Assembly (NCBI GenBank): GCA_977017645.1 | Contig: OZ360222.1 | Location: 209,374,001 to 209,438,000, forward strand | Direction of reading: 5' to 3' | DNA length: 64,000 nt | Origin: Torpedo marmorata | Lineage: Eukaryota | In this document: piece by piece, positions 7,965-61,345 of the stretch | How positions within the stretch are numbered: position 1 is the stretch's first letter | How the letters are laid out: each line of letters begins with the position of its first letter | Notes under the pieces: generated by a model | What the model saw: only the letters and a program-made list of their open reading frames with translations | Told to the model about the DNA's origin: nothing | The model's database searches: none | Position numbers and translations under genes: made by a program

Positions 7965-9086
7965 TTAGTGGAAAGCAGAAAAGTCAATGTTAATGCCATC
8001 TGGCTGGAGAATGCCGAGACGGAAAATGAGATGTTGTTCCTCCAATTTGCGGATAGTCTGGGTGGGATAGTACATAAGGCCATGGACAGACATGTGAGTG
8101 TGGAAGTGTGACCCGGAATTGAAATGGTTGGCTAGTGGGAGGTCGCTGTTGTTGCAGGCGGAGAGGAGGTGTTCAGTAAAGCGATCTCCCAATCTACGAC
8201 AGGTCTCTCCAATGTAGAGAAAGCAACAGAGGGAGCACCGGATGCAGTAAGTAAGTTCTCTGGATGTACAAGTGAAGTGTAGTTTCACTTGGATGTCCTG
8301 TTTGGGGCCCTGGACCGTGGTGAGGGGGGAGGTGTGGGCGCAGGTGTTGCACCTCCTGCGGGCACAGGGGAAGGTGCCGGGGGTGCGATGGGTGGGGAGG
8401 GATGAGTGCACAAATGAATCGCGGAGGGAGCTGTCCCTACAGAAGGCCGAGAGGGGAGGAGAAGGAAAACTGTGTCTGGTGGTGGGATCCTGTAGTAAGT
8501 GCCGGAAATTCCGGCGGATAATGTGTTGGATGCGGAGGCTGGTGGGGTGGTAGGTGAGGATGAGGGGGATTTTTTGTTTGTTGTGTCTGGGGGCAGAGGG
8601 GGCCAGGGCAGATGAGCGGAAAATGGAGGAGATGCGGGTGAGGGCTGAGTTGATGGTGGTGGAGGGGAAGCCACGTTTGTGGAAAAAGGCAGACATTTCA
8701 GAAGATCTGGACTGGAAGACCTCATCTTGGGAACAGATGCGGCGGAGACGGAGAAATTGAGAGAAGGGGATGGAATCCTTGCAGGGGACAGGGTGTGAGG
8801 AAGTGTAGTCCAGATAGTTGTGGGAGTTGGAGGGTTTGCAGTAAATGTCGGTGGAAAGCTTGTCTCCTGAGATGGAGACCGAGAGATCCAGGAAGGGGAG
8901 AGTGTTATCGGAGATGGACCAGGTTAGTTTGAGATCGTGGTGGAAGTTGGATGCGAAGTGGATGAAGTTGACAAGCTCATCGCGTGTGCATGAGGCAGCC
9001 CCGATGTAGTCATCGATATAACGGAGGAAGAGATGAGGGGTCTTGCCTGTGTAGGCTTGCAGCATGGATTGCTCCACAAAGCCCAC
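7965..9086 (-). CDS. Partial PLE polyprotein (RT plus GIY-YIG endonuclease), 373 codons open
   Basis: FLRYIDD, LPFLDL, SQFLRLRRICS, PLILTYHP, C..RRCNTC, TYCIRC..C.FLYIGET. 5'-truncated, so unlikely to be a functional gene. Confidence 0.8.
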   Translation of the reverse strand: MGFVEQSMLQAYTGKTPHLFLRYIDDYIGAASCTRDELVNFIHFASNFHHDLKLTWSISDNTLPFLDLSVSISGDKLSTDIYCKPSNSHNYLDYTSSHPVPCKDSIPFSQFLRLRRICSQDEVFQSRSSEMSAFFHKRGFPSTTINSALTRISSIFRSSALAPSAPRHNKQKIPLILTYHPTSLRIQHIIRRNFRHLLQDPTTRHSFPSPPLSAFCRDSSLRDSFVHSSLPTHRTPGTFPCARRRCNTCAHTSPLTTVQGPKQDIQVKLHFTCTSRELTYCIRCSLCCFLYIGETCRRLGDRFTEHLLSACNNSDLPLANHFNSGSHFHTHMSVHGLMYYPTQTIRKLEEQHLIFRLGILQPDGINIDFSAFH

Positions 9087-9139
9087 AATCAGGTAGCCTG
9101 GACCCCGGCCGCCGTCTCACCGGAGCTCCCAACGCGACG

Positions 9140-9816: not shown

Positions 9817-9954
9817 CTTACATGAACAGTAACACTTTAGAGCTGCAACCGTAATAATATAGACTGTAACAGTGAATTTTTAAAGGATAATTATATACCA
9901 CCAGCGTGGAGCATTGTTCTAAGCAGCCATCTCAGCCATTGCATCACGTGACTC

Positions 9955-10604
9955 TCCCATAGGCCTTCTTAACTATCCTATCAACCTGTGCACCGATCTT
10001 TAGGGATGTATGGATTTGAACCCCAAGGTCCCTCTGTTCATCCACACTCTTAAGTTACCGACCATTAACCCTGTACTCAGCCTTCTGGTTTGTCCTTCCA
10101 AAATGCATCACCTCACACTTATCCGGATTGAACTCCATCTGCCACTTTTCCGCCCAACTCTGCATCCTGTCTATATCCTTTTGTAACCTACGACAAACTT
10201 CAGCTCCATCCACAACTCCTCCAACCTTCGTATCATCCGCAAACTTACTGACCCATTCTTCCACCTCTTCATCCAGGTCATTTATAAAAATCACAAAGAG
10301 CAGTGGTCCCAGAACAGATCGCTGCAGAACTCCACTAGTCACTAACCTCTAGGCAGAATACTTTCCTTCCACCACTACTCTCTGTTTTCTACACGCAAGC
10401 CAATTTTTTATCCACACAGCCAAGGTTCCGTGGATCCCATGCCTCATGACTTTCTGGATGAGTCTCTCATGGGGGACCTTGTCAAATGCCTTACTAAAAT
10501 CTATATAGACCACATCTACCACCCTATCCTCACCAATTTCTTTTGTTACCTCCTCAAAAAACTCAATTAGGCTCATGAGGTACGACCTTCCCTTCACAAA
10601 GCCA
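9955..10604 (-). mobile_element. CR1 LINE RT fragment (host of the L1 insertion)
   Basis: GFVKGRS, YIDFSKAFDKVPH, SVLGPLLFVIFINDL, KFADDTK, WQMEFNPDKCEVMHFG. Confidence 0.92.
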
Positions 10605-11215
10605 AAATAGAATGGGCTAGGATAACATTGATGTGAAGATTGGTGCTTGATGAGCAATGAGGACTCAATGAGGCAAGGGGATTGTGTGTGTGCAGGGTTA
10701 GGAATGAGATGACACTGAAAGCTTCATATTAGCATCAACAACTTGCTCACATCCTCGGCTTTAATGGTCACTGCTATGGAACCTGCATCAGAGTACTCCC
10801 TTCATTGATCGTAGTTTTGTCAGATGCATCAGCCTGAGTTGCATGTTATGATCAATGGTGTTGCAATCTACACATGAGACCACGTGCAGCATGGGGCTCA
10901 ATTGGACCTGAACACAGGACAGTATCATGTTCCCATTCCCCCTCCTCCATGGCAGTCTCTTCTGCTGTTACTGATGATGGCATGACGGATATTGTTTAAC
11001 TCTGACTTACTTCCCAGTGGCCAGAAGGACAATAATGCACCGGTTCCAAGCCTTGTATGCTGCTCCCTCAGAAAATGCACATGTCCCAGATTAAAGCATG
11101 ATTCTGTGAAAAATACTACAGATTTCCACTCAATTTCATGAATCCTTGTGAGAGATCCAAGTAGTCATTGTTGCTACATGCAGCAGATGTATTATGCACC
11201 AGAGTGAAATCCAAC

Positions 11216-16152: not shown

Positions 16153-17715
16153 AAGTCACCAGATGCCCTCGATGTCTGATGGAAGGATAACTGAGAGGCC
16201 AACTGCCTGGAGTTGTAGCACCTGCTGCAGTGATAACAAAACCATACAAGCCTGCACTTGGAGATAAAATAAACTTTTTAGATCTTAGTGTAAATTAAGA
16301 TGAATTCTTCATTTCAACTGACCTTTTGAGCATTCAGCAATGAAAATGAATGGCAAATCATTTTGCTGGGCAGTGAATTATGGAGTGTATATTTTTGAAA
16401 ATTGCATTTTATCATCAGAGCATTTAATTGTTTGAGAGTGGCGACAGACACTGCAAGATTCAAACGAAACACTTCAGATGCTGGAAATTGCTGGAAATAA
16501 ACAGGTCAGGGAGCATCCATGGAGAGAGACAAATTCAACATCCGAGCTTTGGACAAGTGTGTCCGGCATCTTCTGCTTTTGTTCCACAAGATTTGACTTG
16601 TACATGTTTCGTTCATCAAAGTTCAGGCACAATGACCTGGAAATCTCTTGGAACGGCTTCACCTTTATGGGCCATAACAGCGATGGCAGAAATAAATGAC
16701 TAATCATGTTGGTTTGGGCTTGTGCAGACATTATATCCTTCACAGCTGCCAGTTGTAGCCCCGCGCCTGAAATTGAGCACGAAGGCCATTACATTTGAGA
16801 AAATTACATTTGTATGAAGTCCAATAAGGAAGCTTCAGAGATACTGTCGATGTCACCACCAAAATGGCAAATTTGAAGAGAAAATATTCTATTTATTGGT
16901 GGAGTTGAGCAAAGAGGGAATATTGCTTTAGGTCCCACAGTTGGAAAGACCTCTCTCATACATGTTTCTCATTGCTCACTCCTGATCACCCTCTTTAGGC
17001 TAGGTGGTAGCTGATCAAAGTTGACCCTCATGAAATTGCTCAATTATCATCCAGAACTTGCAATCAACACACCTATACTTGTGGGACCTGTCCTATCAGA
17101 TCACCAGCAGCATGCTGACAATGACCATTCCTTTTATTCTTGAAATTGGGCGAAGACTTACATCTGCTTTTGACTAATTCCATCTCACATTGCTTGAAGC
17201 TTGCAAACTAAAGATAGAAAACTTGTGTTTCTTGTGTTTCAGTTGTCTTTCTCTCCTTTCTCCACAGATTTCTTCCTTTTTTGCCTCAGGGGCCTAGTAG
17301 TTAAATCGGCACAGCTCCTAGGTCGTCAGTATCACTGTGGCATCATGCTATGCATCCGTCTTCATGTGGGATGAAATCCAGTGAACAGCGGCACCCAAAT
17401 CCACCATGGTGACATTACTTGTCTGTGGCTGGCATATCCATGTGGACATATTCCAACAAGGATCACTGGGTGGTCATAAAGATATGGAATATCAGTGAAG
17501 GTTTCCACTCCAACAGCCACAAATGTTAATGACATTTAATATTAATCCTATAGTATAGTTTCAAAATTGAATCTCCGATAGGTCAGATGTCAAATTTCAG
17601 ATTTATTGTCAGAGTACATACATGACATCACATACAACCCTGAGATTCTTTTTCCTGAGGGCGAGTAAGAATGACCACTTATTGGTAGTGTACAAAAACT
17701 GTACTCAAGAAGATA

Positions 17716-18248
17716 GCTTTAGCTATTTTAAAGAAATGTATTGCTATTACATGGAAATCTGATGTAGATTTAAAGTTAGAGAGATGGCATGCAGAACTTC
17801 GTTCAGCTATACCACTTGAAAAAATTACTTATAATTTATGTAACAAATATCAGTTCTTTTTGAAAATATGGAGCACATATATAAAAACTGTAGGTTTAAG
17901 GATTTGAAGATCTCTGGATATCAGATCTGACTGGCGAACCTGTGTTTCACAATAAAATTAGCTTATACTTGTTCTTTTNNNNNNNNNNNNNNNNNNNNNN
18001 NNNNNNNNNNNNNNNNNNNNNNNNNNNNNNNNNNNNNNNNNNNNNNNNNNNNNNNNNNNNNNNNNNNNNNNNNNNNNNNNNNNNNNNNNNNNNNNNNNNN
18101 NNNNNNNNNNNAAGGGTGGGAGGGTTAGGGAGGGAGGGGGGTGAAAATATATCATAAGTATTTTGATAATTTTGCATTTTATAATATGTATTATTGAGTG
18201 ATTTAAAATTTTAAATAAAATATTTTTTTAAAAATTAAAAAAAAAAAG
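17716..18248 (+). mobile_element. L1-clade LINE 3' fragment (contains assembly gap 17979-18111)
   Basis: KKCIAITWKS...WHAELRSAIPLEKITY..W matches an L1 ORF2 C-terminus; AATAAA and A-tail; AAGATA occurs on both sides. Confidence 0.75.
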
Positions 18249-18779
18249 ATATGTATACATGTAAACAATTAAAGAAATGTAAACCAACTGTGCAATACAG
18301 AGAGAAAAAATATCAAAAAGTGCAAAAGTAAGAGTCCTTAAATGAGTCTCTGATTGAGTTTGTTGTTTAGGAGTCTGATGGTGGAGGGGTAGTAACTGTT
18401 CCTGAACCTGGTGATATGAGTCCTGTGGCACCTATACCTCTTTCCTGATGGTAGCAGCGAGAACAGAGCGCGTGCTGAGTGGTGCGGGTCCTTGATCATT
18501 GCTGCTGTTCTCCGACGGCAGCGTTCCACGTAGATGTTCTTGATGGTGGGGAGGGTTTTACCCGTGATGTCCTGGGCTGTGTCCATTATCTTTTGCAGGG
18601 CTTTACGCTCAGGCGTGTTGGTGTCCCCATACCAGACCGTGATGCAGCCGGTCAGCACACTTTCCACCACACATCTGTATAAATTTGCCAGAGTTTCCGA
18701 TGTCATACCAAACCTCTGCTAACTCCTGAGGAAGTAGAGGCATTGACGTGCTTTCTTCATGATGCCATTCGTGTGTTGG

Positions 18780-19624
18780 AAGATGGCAGCACTGGTGGAG
18801 CCGCTGTAACGGAAGCGCTGCCTCTGGTGCAGACCTGCGGGGAGTGAGGGAGTGGAGATACAGCGCTCCCATGGGGTCCAACCGCCCAGTCGACTGCCGT
18901 CGGTTCCGCACGGGCTTTGAACGGTCCGTTGAGGGAGCCGACAGTGGTTTTGTTTATGATCCTGCGACCACAGGATCTGCTCCCAAGATGGCAGCGCCTT
19001 TTAACCAGCAGCAGCCACGAGGGACTGCAGACTCCGGGGAAGCGGAGGACTGAAGCAGGGCACCAGAGGACGGGAAGATCACCCCCCATCTGAGAAGGAG
19101 AAGCGGAGGAGACGACCCACGGGACGGTGACCACGGCGGCGGACCAGTGAGGAGCTCTGAGGCTGAAGGACCAGTGCATGCGGCGGGCTGCTGGCAACTC
19201 GAGGCGAGGAACCCGCAGAGGCTGTGGGCTGCTGGAGACTGCTGTCGGGGGACTCAAGCCGGGCTGCGGACTGCTGGAGGCTGGCTCGAACTGGCTGGAG
19301 GAGTACCAGGTATCGGAACCGGGATGCGAGGGGGTGCTGAGGGCGCCATGACCGTGTTGGAGGTTTGGATCTGGAGCTCCGGTTGCCATGGTTTGGACTG
19401 GACTCTGTGTGGCTGCAGAGGCTGCGGAAGCACTGGAGGCGAATCTACGGAGACTCGGTGACTCTGGGGGAACTCTCTTTTGCTTCTCTTTCTCTGACTG
19501 TAAGGAATGTTAGAGGCGCTTAGGCAATTTCTGCCGGTGGCGAATCTGTCTGCCTTACAGCAGGCAAAAAGAAATTTCATGGATTATGACACTGTTTTAT
19601 TACTATGACAATAACTTGAATCTC
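18780..19624 (+). mobile_element. GC/CpG-rich non-coding retroelement with Rex1-type 3' tail (putative non-autonomous)
   Basis: Starts AAGATGGC (again at ~18985); no RT similarity seen; ends TCTGTCTGCCTTAC...AATTTCATG...ATGACAATAA-CTTGAATCT. Confidence 0.7.
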
Positions 19625-19984
19625 TGAAATAATGACTCCCAAGAACTTAAATTTTCTCACCCTCTCCATCTCTGATCCCCCAATCATTACTGGATCATCA
19701 GTCTATGTTAATGGGTAAAATAGCTGACCATCTATTCATCCACTGACAGAGACATGTTTTTTCGTAAAAATAAATAAATGTTCTTTGATTGTGAAAAGAA
19801 GAATACAGAGAATCACATCCCTTCCTTATGACACTCTCACTCCTGCTCTAAATGCCAGAAGGTCAAGTCTGTAGCGGCAATGAGCTGACATCACAGGAAG
19901 CAATGGATTGTTTGCATTGATGTGCCCCAGTCATTATATAGGTCATCGCTGGGATTATGTGATTAACCCCAAAATATGCAGCTT

Positions 19985-31039: not shown

Positions 31040-32905
31040 CTGATTGTTCCAGACCAAGAATCCATTTCTTTCGGTCTGAACTATCTATCATGGTAGATTT
31101 GGGAGAATTAAGTGCATAAAGAAAGTGTCGGCATCAGGGCAGTATGACTAAACTCCAGACATGTATGGTAGTGAACTTGCATATATTCAATGAAATCAAA
31201 ATCAAGGTTCATTTAAAAGACAATGTTCCATCTTGATTCATCATGGTGCGACCTACACCTGACAATTGGAAGGAGAAGGTTGAGGAAGAGCTGAAGAATC
31301 CACAGGGGACCAGGTATCATTGAAATGGTTCAACATTCTGATTGGACAGCTCTACATGTTGCTGTAGTGAATGTAAATGCACTGAATTGGATTTATGGGG
31401 ATTATATGATCAGAATCAAAATCAGAATCAGAATCAGAATCAGAATCAGAATTTATTGTCATGAACAAGTCATGAAATTCGGTGTTTTGCGGCAGCATCA
31501 TAGTGCAATTAACATTCATATTAACCATGTAACGACATTACTATACAAAATTATAAACAATAGTGCACGAAAAGTAAGGTAGTGTCTTTGGTTCATTGAT
31601 TATTCAGGAATCTGATGGCAGCGGGGAAGAAGCTGTCCTTGTGCCGTTGAGTTCTCGTCTTTAGGCTCCTGTACCTTTTCCCCGATAGAAGCAGAGTGAA
31701 GAGGGCATGGCCTGGGTGGTGGGGATCCTTGAGGATAGAGGCTGCTTTTTTAAGACACCGCCTCATGTAGATGTCCTCGATGGAGTGAAGTTTGGTGCAT
31801 GTGATGTCACAGGCTGAGTTAACAACCTTCTGGAGTTTACTCTTGTCCTGGGAGTTGGCGCCTCCATACCAGGCAGTGATGCAACCAGCCAGAATGCTCT
31901 CCACGGTACACCTGTAGAAGTTTACGAGAGTCTTTGGTGACATACCGAATCTCCGCAAACACCTCACGAAGTATAGCCGCTGATGTGCCTTCTTTGTGAT
32001 TGCATCCACGTGGATGCTCCAGGACAGATCCTCGGAGATGTTGACACCCAGGAATTTGAAGTTCTTGACCCTCTCCACTACTGAGCCCTCGATGAGGACT
32101 GGGTCGTGTTCCCCTGACTTCCTCCGGAAGTCCACAATCATCTCCTTGGTTTTGCTGACGTTGAGCTCAAGGTCGTTGTCATTACACCATTCAACGAGCT
32201 GATCTATCTCCCTCCTGTACACTTCCTCATTGCCGTTTGTGATTCTGCCGACAACTGTGGTGTCATCGGCAAACTTGTATATGGCATTGGAATTGTGCCT
32301 GGCCACACAGTCCTGGGTGTATAACGAGTAGAGCAGTGGACTAAGCACGCATCCTTGGGGTGCGCCTGTGTTGATAATCAGTGAGGAGGAGACATTGTTT
32401 CCAATTCGTACTGACTGTGGTCTTCCAATGAGAAAGTGAAGGATCCAGTTGCAGAGTTGATAGCAACCAATGGAGAAGTGGATGCTCCTTATGTCTGTGT
32501 GATGATTTGTTTGATCACCTGGGTGTAGAGACCATCATGTAGTTACCAGCAGACAGGGTTAGATAAACATTCAATCAATGATAAATACTGTGCTTGGCCT
32601 ATTCCCTTACATTTGTGACAGCATCAGCTTCACGTATTGTCCAGGGTATAATTTGATTCAAGATCATAATATATCTAGGTGTGTGGAAGGGCAGAGTTAG
32701 AACACAAGGAGAATCTAGAAGGTGGACCCTAGACAATTCTGAAAAGCAGCTGAGGAGAAACAAATATGTTTCCACTGCATCAGAAGTAACCCACCTTGGT
32801 AATGAATATTGATGGAGTCCACCCACCTAGGGACAAGGTCGGATCAGTGTTGGATGCAATGAATACAACCAACCTGACAAAGTGGAAGGCCTATTTGAGT
32901 GCTTG
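31040..32905 (+). pseudogene. Heavily decayed Gypsy pol relic, split by a Rex1 insertion
   Basis: RPTPDNWKEKVEEEL..GIIEMVQHSDW...IYGDY (31240-31410) and EVTHLG..DGVHPPRDKV...NLTKWKAYL (32780-32900) match Gypsy RT patterns. Confidence 0.65.
31410..32456 (-). mobile_element. Rex1/Babar LINE, 5'-truncated, young
   Basis: Open RT frame [18 protein letters not shown]...KFADDT...[11 protein letters not shown] (31593-32450); tail GAATTTCATG...TGACAATAAA(TTCTGA)n. Confidence 0.93.
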
Positions 32906-46948: not shown

Positions 46949-49749
46949 ATGAGCATAAGAGCGCTTTATCTAAATGCCCGCAGTATTAGAAACAAGGTTA
47001 GTGAACTTGAGGTGCAAATCGGTACCCAGGCATATGATTTAGTGGCCATCACAGAAACAAGGCCACAAGATAACCATGATTGGGAATTAAACTTTCAAGG
47101 GTATCAGGTAGTACAAAAGGATAGACAGGACGGTAAGGGAGGAGGTGTAGCGCTCTTAATCAAGGATGAGTTCAAGGCAATAGTGAGAGATGATATAAGA
47201 TCTAATGAACATAATGTTGAGTCCATCTGGGTGGAGATTAAAAATAACAAAAGGAAAAAAATCACTGGTAGGTGTTGTCTATCGCCCACCAAATAACAAT
47301 AGTACAGTGGCACAGACAATAAACAGAGAGATAAGTGAGGCATGTAAGAATGGAACGGCAGTTGTCGTGGGGGACTTTAACTACTACATAGATTGGGAAA
47401 ATCAAGTTGGTCGCGGGAGTCTGGAAGAAGACTTCATAGAATGCATCCGTGATAGCTTTCTTGAGCAGCACGTTAAGGAACCAACAAGAGTGAATGCTAT
47501 TTTGGATCTAGTATTGTGCAATGAGATAGGTAAAGTAAATGATGTAATAGTTAGGGACCCTCTTGGAAACAGCGATCATAGTATGATTGAATTTCTCATA
47601 CAGATGGAGGGGGAAATAGTTAGATCTAAAACTAATGTATTATGCTTAAACAGGGGAGACTATCACAGGATGAGGGAGGAATTGGTCAGCGTGGACTGGG
47701 AGCACAGGCTAGTTGGTAGAACAGTTGAGGAACAGTGGAAGATTTTCAAGATTTTTCACAATGCTCAACAAAAATATATTCCAGTTAAGAATAAGGGCAG
47801 CAAGAGAGGGAAGAGTCAGCTGTGGTTAACTAAGGAAATAAAGGAGAGTATAAAATTAAAAGCTCAGGTGTACAAAGTTGCAAAGAGTAGTGGGAAACTG
47901 GAAGATTGGGAAAACTTTAAAAGACAACAAGGGACAACAAAGCGGGTAATAAGAAAGGGGAGAAAGGATTATGAAGGTAAATTGGCAAAAAATATAAAAA
48001 CAGATAGTAAAAATTTTTATAAATATATAAAACGGAAGAGGGTGGCTAGAGTTAACATAGGACCCTTGGAAGATGAGAAGGGGAAATTGATATTGAATAA
48101 TGAGGAAATGGCCGAGGCCTTGAACAAATAATTTGTGTCAGTCTTCACGGTGGAAGACACGTCCAGCATGCCAAAGAGTGGAGATAGGGATGCTAATGTT
48201 GGTGAAGGCCTTGATAAAATAGTTGTCACAAAGGAGATAGTGATGAACAAACTAATGGGACTAAAGCCGGACAAATCCCCTGGTCCTGATGAAATGCATC
48301 CCAGGGTTCTGAGGGAAATGGCAGACGTTATAGTCGATGCATTGGTGGTAATATACCAAAATTCTCTAGATTCTGGGCAGGTCCCGGCAGATTGGAGGAC
48401 AGCAAATGTCGCGCCACTTTTTAAGAAGGGATGTAGGCAGAAGACTGGGAACTATCGGCCAATTAGCTTAACGTATGTAGTTGGGAAAATGCTTGAAGCT
48501 GTCATTAAGGATGAAATAGTGAGACATTTAGAACGAAGGGGTTCAATCAGGCAGACGCAGCATGGGTTTAGGAAGGGCAGATCTTGTTTGACAAACTTGT
48601 TAGAGTTCTTTGAGGACATAATGGGTGTGGTAGATAGAGGGGAACAGGTTGATGTTGTATATTTGGATTTCCAGAAAGCATTTTGATAAAGTGCCGCACA
48701 AGAGACTTATCATTAAATTACAGGTGAATGGAGTCCAGGGAAGTATATTGGCATGGTCTGACAGGAGGCAGAGAGTCGGGATAAATGGGTGTTTTTCTGA
48801 TTGGCAGACAGTGGTAAGTGGGGTGCCGCAGGGGTCGGTGCTGGGCCCACAACTGTTCATCATTTACATTGATGATTTGAGGAGGGGACAAAATGTGGTG
48901 TAGCCAAGTTTGCGGATGATACTAAATTGAGTGAAAGAGCAAATTGTACTGAGGATGTGGAGAGGCTGCAGAGGGATATTTAGTTAAGTTAGGTGAGTGG
49001 GCAAAGTCTGGCAGATGGAGTACAATGTTAGTAAGTGCGAGGTTATCCACTTTGGCAAGAAAAATAAAAGAGCAGAGTATTATTTAAATGGTGAAAATTT
49101 GCAGCATGCTGTTGTGCAGAAGGACTTGGGAGTGCTTGTGCACAAATCACAAAAAGTTGGGTTGCAGGTGTAGCAGGCTATTAAGAAGGCAAATGGAATG
49201 TTGGCCTTCATCGCTAGAGGAATTGAATTCAGGAGCAAGGAGGTAATGTTGCAACTGTACAAGGTACTGGTGAGACCGCACCTGGAGTACTGTGTGCAGT
49301 TCTGGTCTCCATATTTGAGGAAGGATATACTGTCCTTGGAGGCAGTCCAGAGGAGGTTTACTAGGTTGATCCCTGAGATGAAGGGGTTGACTTATGATGA
49401 AAGATTAAATCGTCTGGGATTATACTCGCTCGAGTTCAGAAGAATGAGAGGAGATCTTATAGAAACATATAGAATTATGAAGGGGATGGATAGGATAGAG
49501 GTAGGAAGGTTTTTTTCACTGGCGGGTGAGACCAAAACTAGGGGACACAGCCTCAAGATTCAGGGGAGTAGATTTAGGACAGAGATGAGAAAAAACAGTT
49601 TTTCCCAGAGAGTGGTGAATTTGTGGAATTCTCTACCCAGGGAAGCGGTTGAGGCTGCTTCAATGAACATATTTAAGGTTCAGTTGGATAGATTTTTACA
49701 TAAAAAAGGAATTAGGGGATATGGGGAAAGGGCAGGTAGGTGGAGTTAG
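46949..49749 (+). pseudogene. CR1 ORF2 (APE endonuclease plus RT), disrupted
   Basis: [59 protein letters not shown]; several stops and frameshifts. Confidence 0.92.
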
Positions 49750-50904: not shown

Positions 50905-51120
50905 GAGTTCAATTTCAAGTTTAAGTTCAAGTTCAAGTTTATTTACCATCCGATTGTCCAAGTACAACCCAACGAAACAGCGTTCACCGGTCCTCGGTGC
51001 TAAACACTGCAAACACACAGACAGACAAATGCAACATATGCACAGTACGTATATACAAATATTAAAATAAATAAATATTATTGTTAAATAAATAGTAGAG
51101 TCACGCAGAGTTAGAGTGGG
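50905..51120 (-). mobile_element. Rex1-type 3' tail
   Basis: (AAGTTC)n-TTTATT...AAGTACAACCC...GGTCCTCGGTGC, nearly the same as the tail of the Rex1 at 60760-61345. Confidence 0.75.
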
Positions 51121-58509: not shown

Positions 58510-58761
58510 ACATACAGCACCAATAGCCTGAATACGACTGGGATTGTCTGATCTCGGAAGCTAAGCAGGCACAGGACCGGTCAGTACTTGAAGGGGAGAC
58601 CGCCTAGGAACACCAGATGCTGTAGGTTTCTATGAGGGGCGCTGGACAAAGTAGTGACTCTCTGTCTGCCTTACGGTAGACAAAAATTAAAGAATTTCAT
58701 GTATGTTACATTCTAAATGTAGTATTACGTGACAATAATGGAACCTTTAACCTTTAACCTT
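58510..58761 (+). mobile_element. 5S rRNA-derived SINE (SINE3 type) with Rex1-like tail
   Basis: 58510-58629 is collinear with vertebrate 5S rRNA (GTCTGATCTCGGAAGCTAAGCAGG...AGTACTTG..GGGAGACCGCCT.GGAA.ACC...TGCTGTAGG). A ~130-bp tail follows, ending TGACAATAA and (AACCTTT)n. Confidence 0.82.
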
Positions 58762-60759: not shown

Positions 60760-61345
60760 AAGTCACGTCAAGTCAAGTTTATTGTTATCCAATTGCACAA
60801 GTACAACCCGACTAAACAGCGTTCTCCGGTCCTCGGTGCAAAACACGCAGACACAGAACCAGACATAACACACATACATACAAACAGTACATCTGCAGGA
60901 CAAGTATTCATATATACAAATAAATAAATAAATATTGTTTCATGAATATGAGAGTCTCGTATCCTTAGTGTGAGCAGTTCCTTTGGTCGTTCAGCATTCT
61001 CACTGTCCGTGGGAAGAAGCTGTTCCTCATCCTGGTGGTACTGGCTCTGATACTCCTGTATCTCTTTCCCGATGGGAGTAGCTGAACGATGCTGTGCGGA
61101 GGGTGGAAGGGGTCCTCAATGATTTTGCGCGCCCTCTTCAGACAACGATCCCAGTAGATCACATCTATAGGGGGTGGGAGGGAGACTCCAGTGATCCTCT
61201 CTGCCACTCTTATGGTCCTGTGGATTGACCTCTGATCCATTTCTCTGCAGCAACCATAGCACACTGTGATGCAGCCGGCCAGGATGCTCTCGATAGAGCT
61301 CCTGTAGATGGTTGACATAATGGTGGCCGGTAGCCTTGCCCGCTG
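60760..61345 (-). mobile_element. Rex1/Babar LINE 3' fragment
   Basis: [18 protein letters not shown]...LLPSGKRYRSI...NSFFP; (GTCAA)n tail on the plus strand. Confidence 0.9.

Follow-up and report, generated by a model that had tools for sequence, protein, structure and literature searches.

Background

Described partners of SINE3 elements come from the CR1, I and RTE clades of LINEs (PMC7245038, in the sections available). For Rex1, the accessible parts of the literature contain one described SINE pair, the tRNA-headed SINE2-5_NV and its LINE Rex1-24_NV from Nematostella (PMC3747384 Table 1; PMC3472496 Fig. S1). Bipartite LINE derivatives are, according to the excerpts of PMC5786205, made only by RTE, Ingi, Vingi and R2, and SINE middles come only from RTE and Vingi. 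Several 5S SINEs on a bipartite RTE-derived body are described in the same excerpts, i.e., Ped-1, CoeSINE5, HaSE3 and SINE-1_Pmo. The available parts of PMC5753468, PMC4698564, PMC10946416, PMC4635592, PMC6274825, PMC13034634, PMC3531059 and PMC5499810 contain no 5S-Rex1 pair. Neither such a pair nor a bipartite Rex1 nor pairing between Rex1 ends was found in the literature searched, which was covered in part and is separate from the Repbase, Dfam and SINEBase tables. As far as these sources go, a 5S-Rex1 pair would therefore extend the list of known partners, which holds CR1, RTE and I-clade LINEs for 5S SINEs and one tRNA-SINE for Rex1.

A 5S-headed SINE in the window

The window, i.e., the whole 64,000-nt stretch of the Torpedo marmorata genome analyzed here, contains at 58514-58750 one copy of a 5S-headed SINE of about 240 nt. 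Its 5S rRNA-derived head (58510..58628, + strand) was identified with Rfam and by alignment to the host 5S gene; copies of the family start at about 58512-58515. RF00001 matches over its full length at 58510-58628 (+) with 52.4 bits (cut-off 38), and 5S is the sole Rfam match at gathering score within the 64-kb window. In alignment with the host 5S gene, 93/119 positions of the head are identical; the count is 41/48 for nt 50-97 and 34/49 for nt 1-49. The head is complete but diverged, as the preliminary description had it. An element counts as a SINE3 when 60 nt or more of its 5′ end are at least 60% identical to 5S rRNA, and by these values the present one belongs to this class. The internal control region (5S nt 50-97), which is largely conserved, corresponds to about 58559-58606 (+) inside the head. 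Its boxes, which we take to be nt 50-64, 67-72 and 80-97, all lie in this part.

Downstream of the head follow the start of a shared module (58629..58660, +), which aligns to the 3′ end of the GC-2 subfamily discussed below, and a predicted hairpin of 8 bp with a TTAC loop, here called hairpin 1 (58663..58682, +). A terminal hairpin closed by TCA/TGA and followed by CAATAA (58697..58738, +) was delimited by folding and by covariation across families. The copy ends, as judged from copy alignments, in the tandem repeat (AACCTTT)n (58739..58761, +) without a target-site duplication. In most copies of the family the terminal repeat is (ACCTTT)n.

It had been proposed that the SINE shares motifs with a GC-rich element and with a Rex1 tail in the window, and all of them were found at the positions given. 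On the + strand, TCTGTCTGCCTTAC is present both in the SINE (58661-58674) and in the GC-rich element (19545-19558). AATTTCATG is located at 58693, 19573 and 31471-31479 (-), and TGACAATAA at 58730, 19606 and 31453-31461 (-). TGACAATAA alone is weakly enriched in the window, with 4 matches, a number reached by 4/100 shuffles. The fourth match at 17603-17611 (-), which had not been used before, represents the tail of another family of the Rex type. All three elements end in short repeats as described, (AACCTTT)n in the SINE, a decayed (AATCTTG)n in the GC-rich element and (ATTCTG)n in the Rex1 tail. A stem common to the three ends can also be folded in each of them as stated, but only the SINE end is clearly better than shuffled sequences (z-score -3.9, compared with -1.9 for the GC-rich element and +0.06 for the Rex1 tail at 31.4 kb).

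The T-run terminator of the host 5S gene is broken in the SINE, and four consecutive T are absent from its majority sequence. A run of at least four T was detected in 1/52 full SINE copies compared with 4/6 GC-2 copies, a count that leaves out a seventh, SINE-type row. In GC-2, the donor of the tail, the loop of the terminal hairpin has a T-run, which is broken in the SINE. This loss fits selection for Pol III read-through, and the internal 5S promoter is likely to direct transcription of the SINE by Pol III.

Copy number and age of the family

Tail words are very common in the searched genome of 6.2 Gb, and copies were hence counted by exact patterns. A 26-mer of the tail has 20,483 exact matches and a 26-mer of the head 5,940; reversed controls gave 0. 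All 40 scored family matches span about 245 nt at 96-100% identity with unrelated flanks, and the same ends and unrelated flanks were seen at 30 fetched loci. This disposes of the reservation that the 5S-tail fusion might be a chance chimera of a single copy. The first 30 tail matches in order of position comprise 21 elements of near full length, 8 truncated at the 5′ end and 1 with an internal deletion; 5S sequence is present in 28 of them, the other 2 begin within the tail, and none is a LINE. Copies that are 5S pseudogenes, or one chimera amplified at the DNA level, might be considered in view of the 22% divergence of the head from the host 5S gene. This explanation is refuted, and we assign it practically no probability: the element has a body of its own and substitutions common to its copies, the copies are dispersed between unrelated flanks, their terminal repeat varies, and some are truncated at the 5′ end. 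The tandem 5S rDNA array, located by the Rfam family search (C25:86.20-86.56 Mb, units about 3.2-3.8 kb apart), lacks the module in its spacers in 6/6 units checked.

SINE copies differ from the majority sequence by a median of 1.7%, and by 1.4% when CpG sites are left out (n = 23). The corresponding non-CpG values are 2.3% for GC-1 (n = 8) and 2.4% for the LINE family RexA (n = 15, lowest 1.8%). The ages of the three overlap, yet most of the RexA copies sampled are older than the SINE. In public sequencing runs of four organisms, one of which may be the window's own sample, the same SINE boundaries were found in 4/4, and among the contigs listed the head-tail joint is bridged in at least 2 runs. 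In one other organism (run X3), the summed contig depth of the last ~50 nt (window 58690-58740) is 4-5 times that of the head, which suggests more elements with this end.

Target-site duplications of at least 8 nt were detected in 0/64 SINE, 0/32 GC-rich and 0/41 RexA copies. Even duplications of at least 6 nt are absent from the SINE copies (0/64), unlike in SINEs mobilized by L1 or RTE. Where both flanks lie in one repeat (18 SINE, 11 GC-rich and 11 RexA cases), the junctions are mostly near-blunt or show loss of target sequence. Two further features were rejected. Extra 5′ head copies as a hallmark were unconvincing (5/52 vs. 2/64 controls), and for a headless family of ~125 nt, 3 incidental copies start near the joint, but 0/8 truncated copies of the positional set do. 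SINEBase, in the part of PMC3531059 available, asks of a SINE that it is under 1 kb, interspersed and present in at least 100 copies, all of which applies to this element. It is a real, young and abundant SINE3 family with at least 20,000 copies.

Origin of the shared tail

The GC-rich element in the window (18783..19621, +) is non-coding, about 845 nt long, belongs to the GC-1 subfamily and ends in the same module as the SINE. The first look revealed 10,986 candidates for its family; 40/40 scored at 92-100%, and the family also includes old, diverged members. No conserved long ORF was found in the majority sequence. The window copy was inserted into a copy of the LINE RexB, with about 25 nt of target lost. 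At this place (17589-19694) the elements form a nested stack, the GC-rich element lying within RexB, whose 3′ UTR also carries an AT-rich insertion (~17708-18228).

The 3′ half of the SINE corresponds to the last ~125 nt of the older GC-2 subfamily. SINE nt 125-251 align to the 3′ end of GC-2 with a score of 156, compared with 71 for GC-1. When the terminal TGACAATAA is left out, the similarity of the SINE tail has a z-score of 22.6 against GC-2, 3.8 against RexB, 0.1 against RexA and -0.1 against CR1. Because of the difference between GC-2 and RexA, the tail appears to have reached the SINE through the GC-rich lineage and not straight from RexA.

A sister SINE with the same module carries a tRNA-Thr(TGT) head. 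It has at least 1,796 exact 26-mers and is about 4% diverged (e.g., L151:3560-3780 (-); L265-L294). The first 30 matches of its 26-mer comprise 23 tRNA-headed, 5 5S-headed and 2 truncated elements. Since GC-rich, tRNA-Thr and 5S elements all carry the module, one module occurs under three heads. Its use with both a GC-rich and a 5S head had already been noticed in the preliminary description, and the tRNA-Thr head is new.

The leader of the GC-rich element (68% GC, CpG o/e 0.91) has internal T-runs and no small-RNA head, features from which transcription by Pol II may be assumed. A tRNA inside the element was considered and rejected; it appeared at relaxed thresholds only in GC-1, was absent in GC-2, and Rfam gave nothing near the cut-off. 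Two units starting with AA(G/A)ATGGCGGCG are located at ~nt 1-45 and 220-260 (window 18783-18830 and 18985-19030). The internal unit has its best matches at the 5′ ends of RexC, RexF and RexX, a score reached by 0/192, 0/199 and 0/356 other windows, respectively. In GC-2, this likeness of the second unit is a hint of serial capture of Rex 5′ ends.

Rex-type LINEs and the partner question

The partner proposed in the preliminary description is a 5′-truncated RexA copy (31436..32465, -), which consists of the RT C-terminus with RVT_1 and PF09004 matches, a short 3′ UTR and (ATTCTG)n. It is 97.5% identical to full-length RexA. RexB, the LINE whose tail is most like the module, is broken into pieces at 19694-19622, 18754-18229 and 17707-17589 (17589..19694, -). 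A RexC 3′ end with the same kind of hairpin and (ACTTG)n lies at 60763..61344 (-) and was included in the comparison of 3′ ends; another retroelement piece at 50927-51027 (-) is a short RexC tail.

RexA is 3.25 kb long with one open frame of 935 aa, which contains APE and RT domains plus PF09004. RVT_1 was found with E 2e-34, the endonuclease families with E ~1e-4, weaker than the curated cut-offs. PF09004 is presumably linked to Rex-Babar. In a tree of 51 RT rows, in which RexA was thinned to 4 near-identical rows and which includes no named Rex1 reference, the sampled Rex-type RTs form a clade with RVT_1+PF09004 proteins of teleosts, separated from CR1-like RTs at 100/100. One odd RT in this tree proved to be CR1-like. 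Among the 240 matches listed for the Rex-type RT there is no named Rex1 protein, and the top named relative of the window copy is from sawfish (75%). Published Rex1 primers have 6/21 and 11/24 mismatches to RexA DNA; at the peptide level, the equivalent sites are separated by 572 nt, close to the published ~550 bp. The Rex 3′ UTRs are followed by tandem repeats of the 5-7-nt type (ATTCTG, AATCTG, ACTTG and others), and such an end is described for Rex1/Babar in the available part of PMC4635592. The putative assignment to Rex1/Babar is based on domain layout, tail type and separation from CR1 in the tree.

The motif of the SINE end was found at 72/104 Rex-type ORF ends (380 nt searched) and at 2/73 CR1 ends (230 nt searched), with a background of 4.9%. 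Of the claimed SINE3-Rex1 partnership, a terminus of the Rex and not of the CR1 type is borne out, the motif and stem being shared at the level of the clade; the RexA copy named as partner, however, shows no similarity beyond the motif (z 0.1). An RT-encoding element ending in the same tail was not found: 0/119 module-like tails, mostly SINE copies, had a Rex ORF end within 400 nt in the 1.63 Mb fetched. RexA is abundant, with 49,629 exact tail 26-mers genome-wide. Its long copies are 96-98% alike, those of RexF 96-97%, of RexB 91-95% and of RexC 87-90%; RexA and RexF are the youngest Rex families seen, and RexB and RexC are older. Taken together, the z-score of 0.1, the 0/119 tails and the family ages and abundance point to recognition by structure at the level of the clade, with RexA as the likeliest motor.

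Mobilization by a CR1- or L2-clade LINE, with the Rex-like end as a relic, would agree with the vertebrate SINE3 families that are moved by the CR1 clade (PMC7245038, in part) and with the abundance of CR1 here (73 ends). We consider it improbable in view of the 2/73 CR1 ends with the motif, the tail similarity of z -0.1 and the terminal stem and CAATAA, which are kept in nearly all young SINE copies; the odd RT, moreover, turned out to belong on the CR1 side. The absence of target-site duplications does not separate Rex1 from CR1 or L2.

Several other elements were seen. The start AAGATGGCG was rejected as a mark of Rex1, as other elements, presumably L1-like, start alike. Two copies, which we take to be U6-like snRNA, were found at L143:2480-2660 (+) and at L107 just 3′ of a CR1 end; the L143 copy is located inside a Rex 5′ UTR, where it ends in an A-rich stretch and seems to be flanked by a target duplication. 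Further retroelement pieces in the window are a Penelope-like RT at 7968-9116 (-), so called by its likeness to L105, which itself has a weak GIY-YIG match, a CR1-like RT at 9950-10615 (-) and a distant RT at 47823-48683 (+). An open frame of 1,297 aa with a SAP domain was present in several sampled copies (L093:539-4429 (-), L133, L135, L129) and probably belongs to an LTR-type element.

The terminal hairpin and probable mobilization of the SINE by Rex1-type LINEs

The preliminary description suggested a covariation check on the terminal stem, and across families the arms do covary. At the base of the stem, T-A and C-G are kept in 9/9 families. Stem positions 4-6 are paired in 24/27 cells, compared with 15.4 when the arms are swapped between families; the arms were anchored by patterns specific to each family, and in two families n is 1 and 2. 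Collapsing the GC lineage leaves 15/18 paired cells compared with 8.8, a fraction of 0.0028 of 720 permutations. Within the SINE/GC lineage the stem changes are almost all to G-U, with 1/14 two-sided pairs, and 396/500 shuffles are as high.

We regard it as probable that this young 5S SINE, likely transcribed by Pol III, is copied by the endonuclease-reverse transcriptase of Rex1-type LINEs via its terminal hairpin, CAAUAA and repeat. The tail probably gives the tRNA-headed and the GC-rich elements access to the enzyme of such LINEs as well. In such a pathway a small RNA would have been joined to the GC-2 tail by template switching, with loss of the T-runs that stop Pol III, and the 5S and tRNA heads would then have been swapped on one module. 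The Rex1-type enzyme would recognize the terminal hairpin, CAAUAA and short repeat, with structure plus CAAUAA counting more than long sequence identity. If so, the present mobilizer need not be the donor of the tail, and by age and abundance RexA fits best as the current one.

A possible two-ended module and a predicted panhandle

In full-length copies of five Rex families, the 5′ end at ~nt 25-45 is complementary to the 3′ UTR directly before the terminal hairpin, and the complementary stretches differ in sequence from one family to the next. Under a fixed rule, which gave 10/11 elements a window and misplaced it in 3, matched 5′/3′ pairing across the 5 families takes ranks 1-3 among 120 family permutations in 9/9 window settings; the next 5′ UTR window, taken as a control, ranks 34-110 of 120. 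The pattern was first spotted by eye, and shuffles of single elements gave p values from 0.007 to 0.37.

The start of the GC-2 module matches RexA and RexB best in their first 55 nt, a score reached by 0/202-208 other windows, and it includes an exact 12-nt match to RexA. The SINE's own module start is weaker in this respect, as 5-19 of ~205 other windows reach its score. The likeness of the module to Rex 5′ ends is short (17-31 nt). Since the GC-2 version of 58629..58660 resembles the first ~35 nt of full-length RexA/RexB, we infer that this part may be a 5′-end remnant. Hairpin 1 occupies the place expected for the panhandle; 93.1% of its cells are paired across 20 SINE/GC-lineage copies, with one-sided changes only.

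The module could also be the ordinary 3′ tail of an extinct or unsampled Rex1 family, similar to RexB or RexD and acting as one specific partner, with the likeness to Rex 5′ ends due to chance. Against RexB tails, those of the SINE and of GC-1 reach z 3.8 and 5.0, single RexD tails align to the module over ~75 nt (RexD with n = 3 and RexE with n = 1 are too few for firm statistics), the 3′ UTR of RexB itself holds a stretch resembling hairpin 1, and the unbiased sample covers only ~0.65 Mb of 6.2 Gb. This reading is possible, and we lean against it: the start of the GC-2 module is best placed at the RexA/RexB 5′ ends, including the 12-nt match, no LINE was found with the tail among the 119, and the mover of more than 20,000 recent copies should be visible; RexA has 49,629 tail 26-mers.

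For a bipartite origin, in which the element would have lost its interior and the panhandle predicted in full-length Rex RNA would now be hairpin 1, we see the chances as about even. A more specific model is proposed tentatively. Rex1 RNAs would close a 5′-3′ panhandle next to the terminal hairpin, the protein would need both parts, and loss of ~3.1 kb of the interior would leave a mini-Rex1 of ~125 nt suitable for any promoter. On interior deletion the panhandle would turn into a tetraloop hairpin, and the module would be driven by a GC-rich leader of serial Rex1 5′ ends, by tRNA-Thr or by 5S rRNA. A standalone mini-element was searched for, and 0/30 RexA 5′ ends had a tail within 1,480 nt. 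Three RexA copies (L295, L311, L316) have internal deletions of 1.2-1.7 kb, with the 5′ end and later sequence kept. In RexB (L218, L227), the 5′ end and 3′ UTR also share a near-direct repeat, which could guide internal deletion.

Comparison with known systems

The closest relatives in design are Ped-1, CoeSINE5, HaSE3 and SINE-1_Pmo, in which, as here, a 5S head is joined to LINE-derived sequence (PMC5786205). The head exchange between CoeSINE4 (tRNA) and CoeSINE5 (5S) and between HaSE1 and HaSE3 is parallel to the tRNA-Thr/5S pair in this genome, and the SINE of Torpedo marmorata agrees with the model in which a bipartite non-autonomous LINE acquires a head. Unlike in the RTE-derived 5S SINEs, the donor here is probably of the Rex type, and the module came via a GC-rich intermediate of ~845 nt. 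These comparisons refer to the excerpts of PMC5786205.

SINE2-5_NV and Rex1-24_NV have the same short AATT-hairpin-CAAT end, as judged by eye from PMC3472496 Fig. S1, and the terminal short repeat of SINE2-5_NV differs from that of its LINE, as it does in the SINE described here. SINE2-5_NV differs in its tRNA head and cnidarian host, and the available descriptions mention neither a 5S head nor a GC-rich sister. SINE3-1, AmnSINE1 and OS-SINE1, which are 5S DeuSINEs of fish and amniotes, share with our element the vertebrate host, the 5S-derived head and the end in short tandem repeats (PMC3747384, PMC7245038, both in part). They have CR1-4_DR-like or RSg-1 partners and a Deu body. In the window SINE, no Deu domain was found between head and tail, as judged by alignment to GC-2; everything downstream of the head is accounted for by the GC-2 tail, which leaves no room for it. 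HE1/HER1, CmiSINE/L2-2_CM and SacSINE1 are SINEs of cartilaginous fishes, probably the same host group as here, but in the parts of PMC3747384 and PMC5499810 available each has a tRNA head and a tail of CR1 or L2 type.

The design, a small-RNA head on a LINE-derived module, is known, and the motor is likely of the Rex1 clade. What looks new are the complementary 5′ and 3′ ends of full-length Rex families and a module that looks as if these ends had been folded together into a hairpin. With its three types of promoter in a single genome, the module provides a natural head-swap series; it would also define a minimal signal in RNA that Rex1 proteins recognize, and the young insertions could be used as markers among related species. 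The predicted 5′-3′ pairing allows a direct test of a question left open in the excerpts of PMC5786205, namely why internally deleted derivatives are made by very few groups of LINEs. If the mini-Rex1 model is true, Rex1 would join the clades that make bipartite derivatives, and the restriction of such derivatives to some LINE clades would have a physical explanation.
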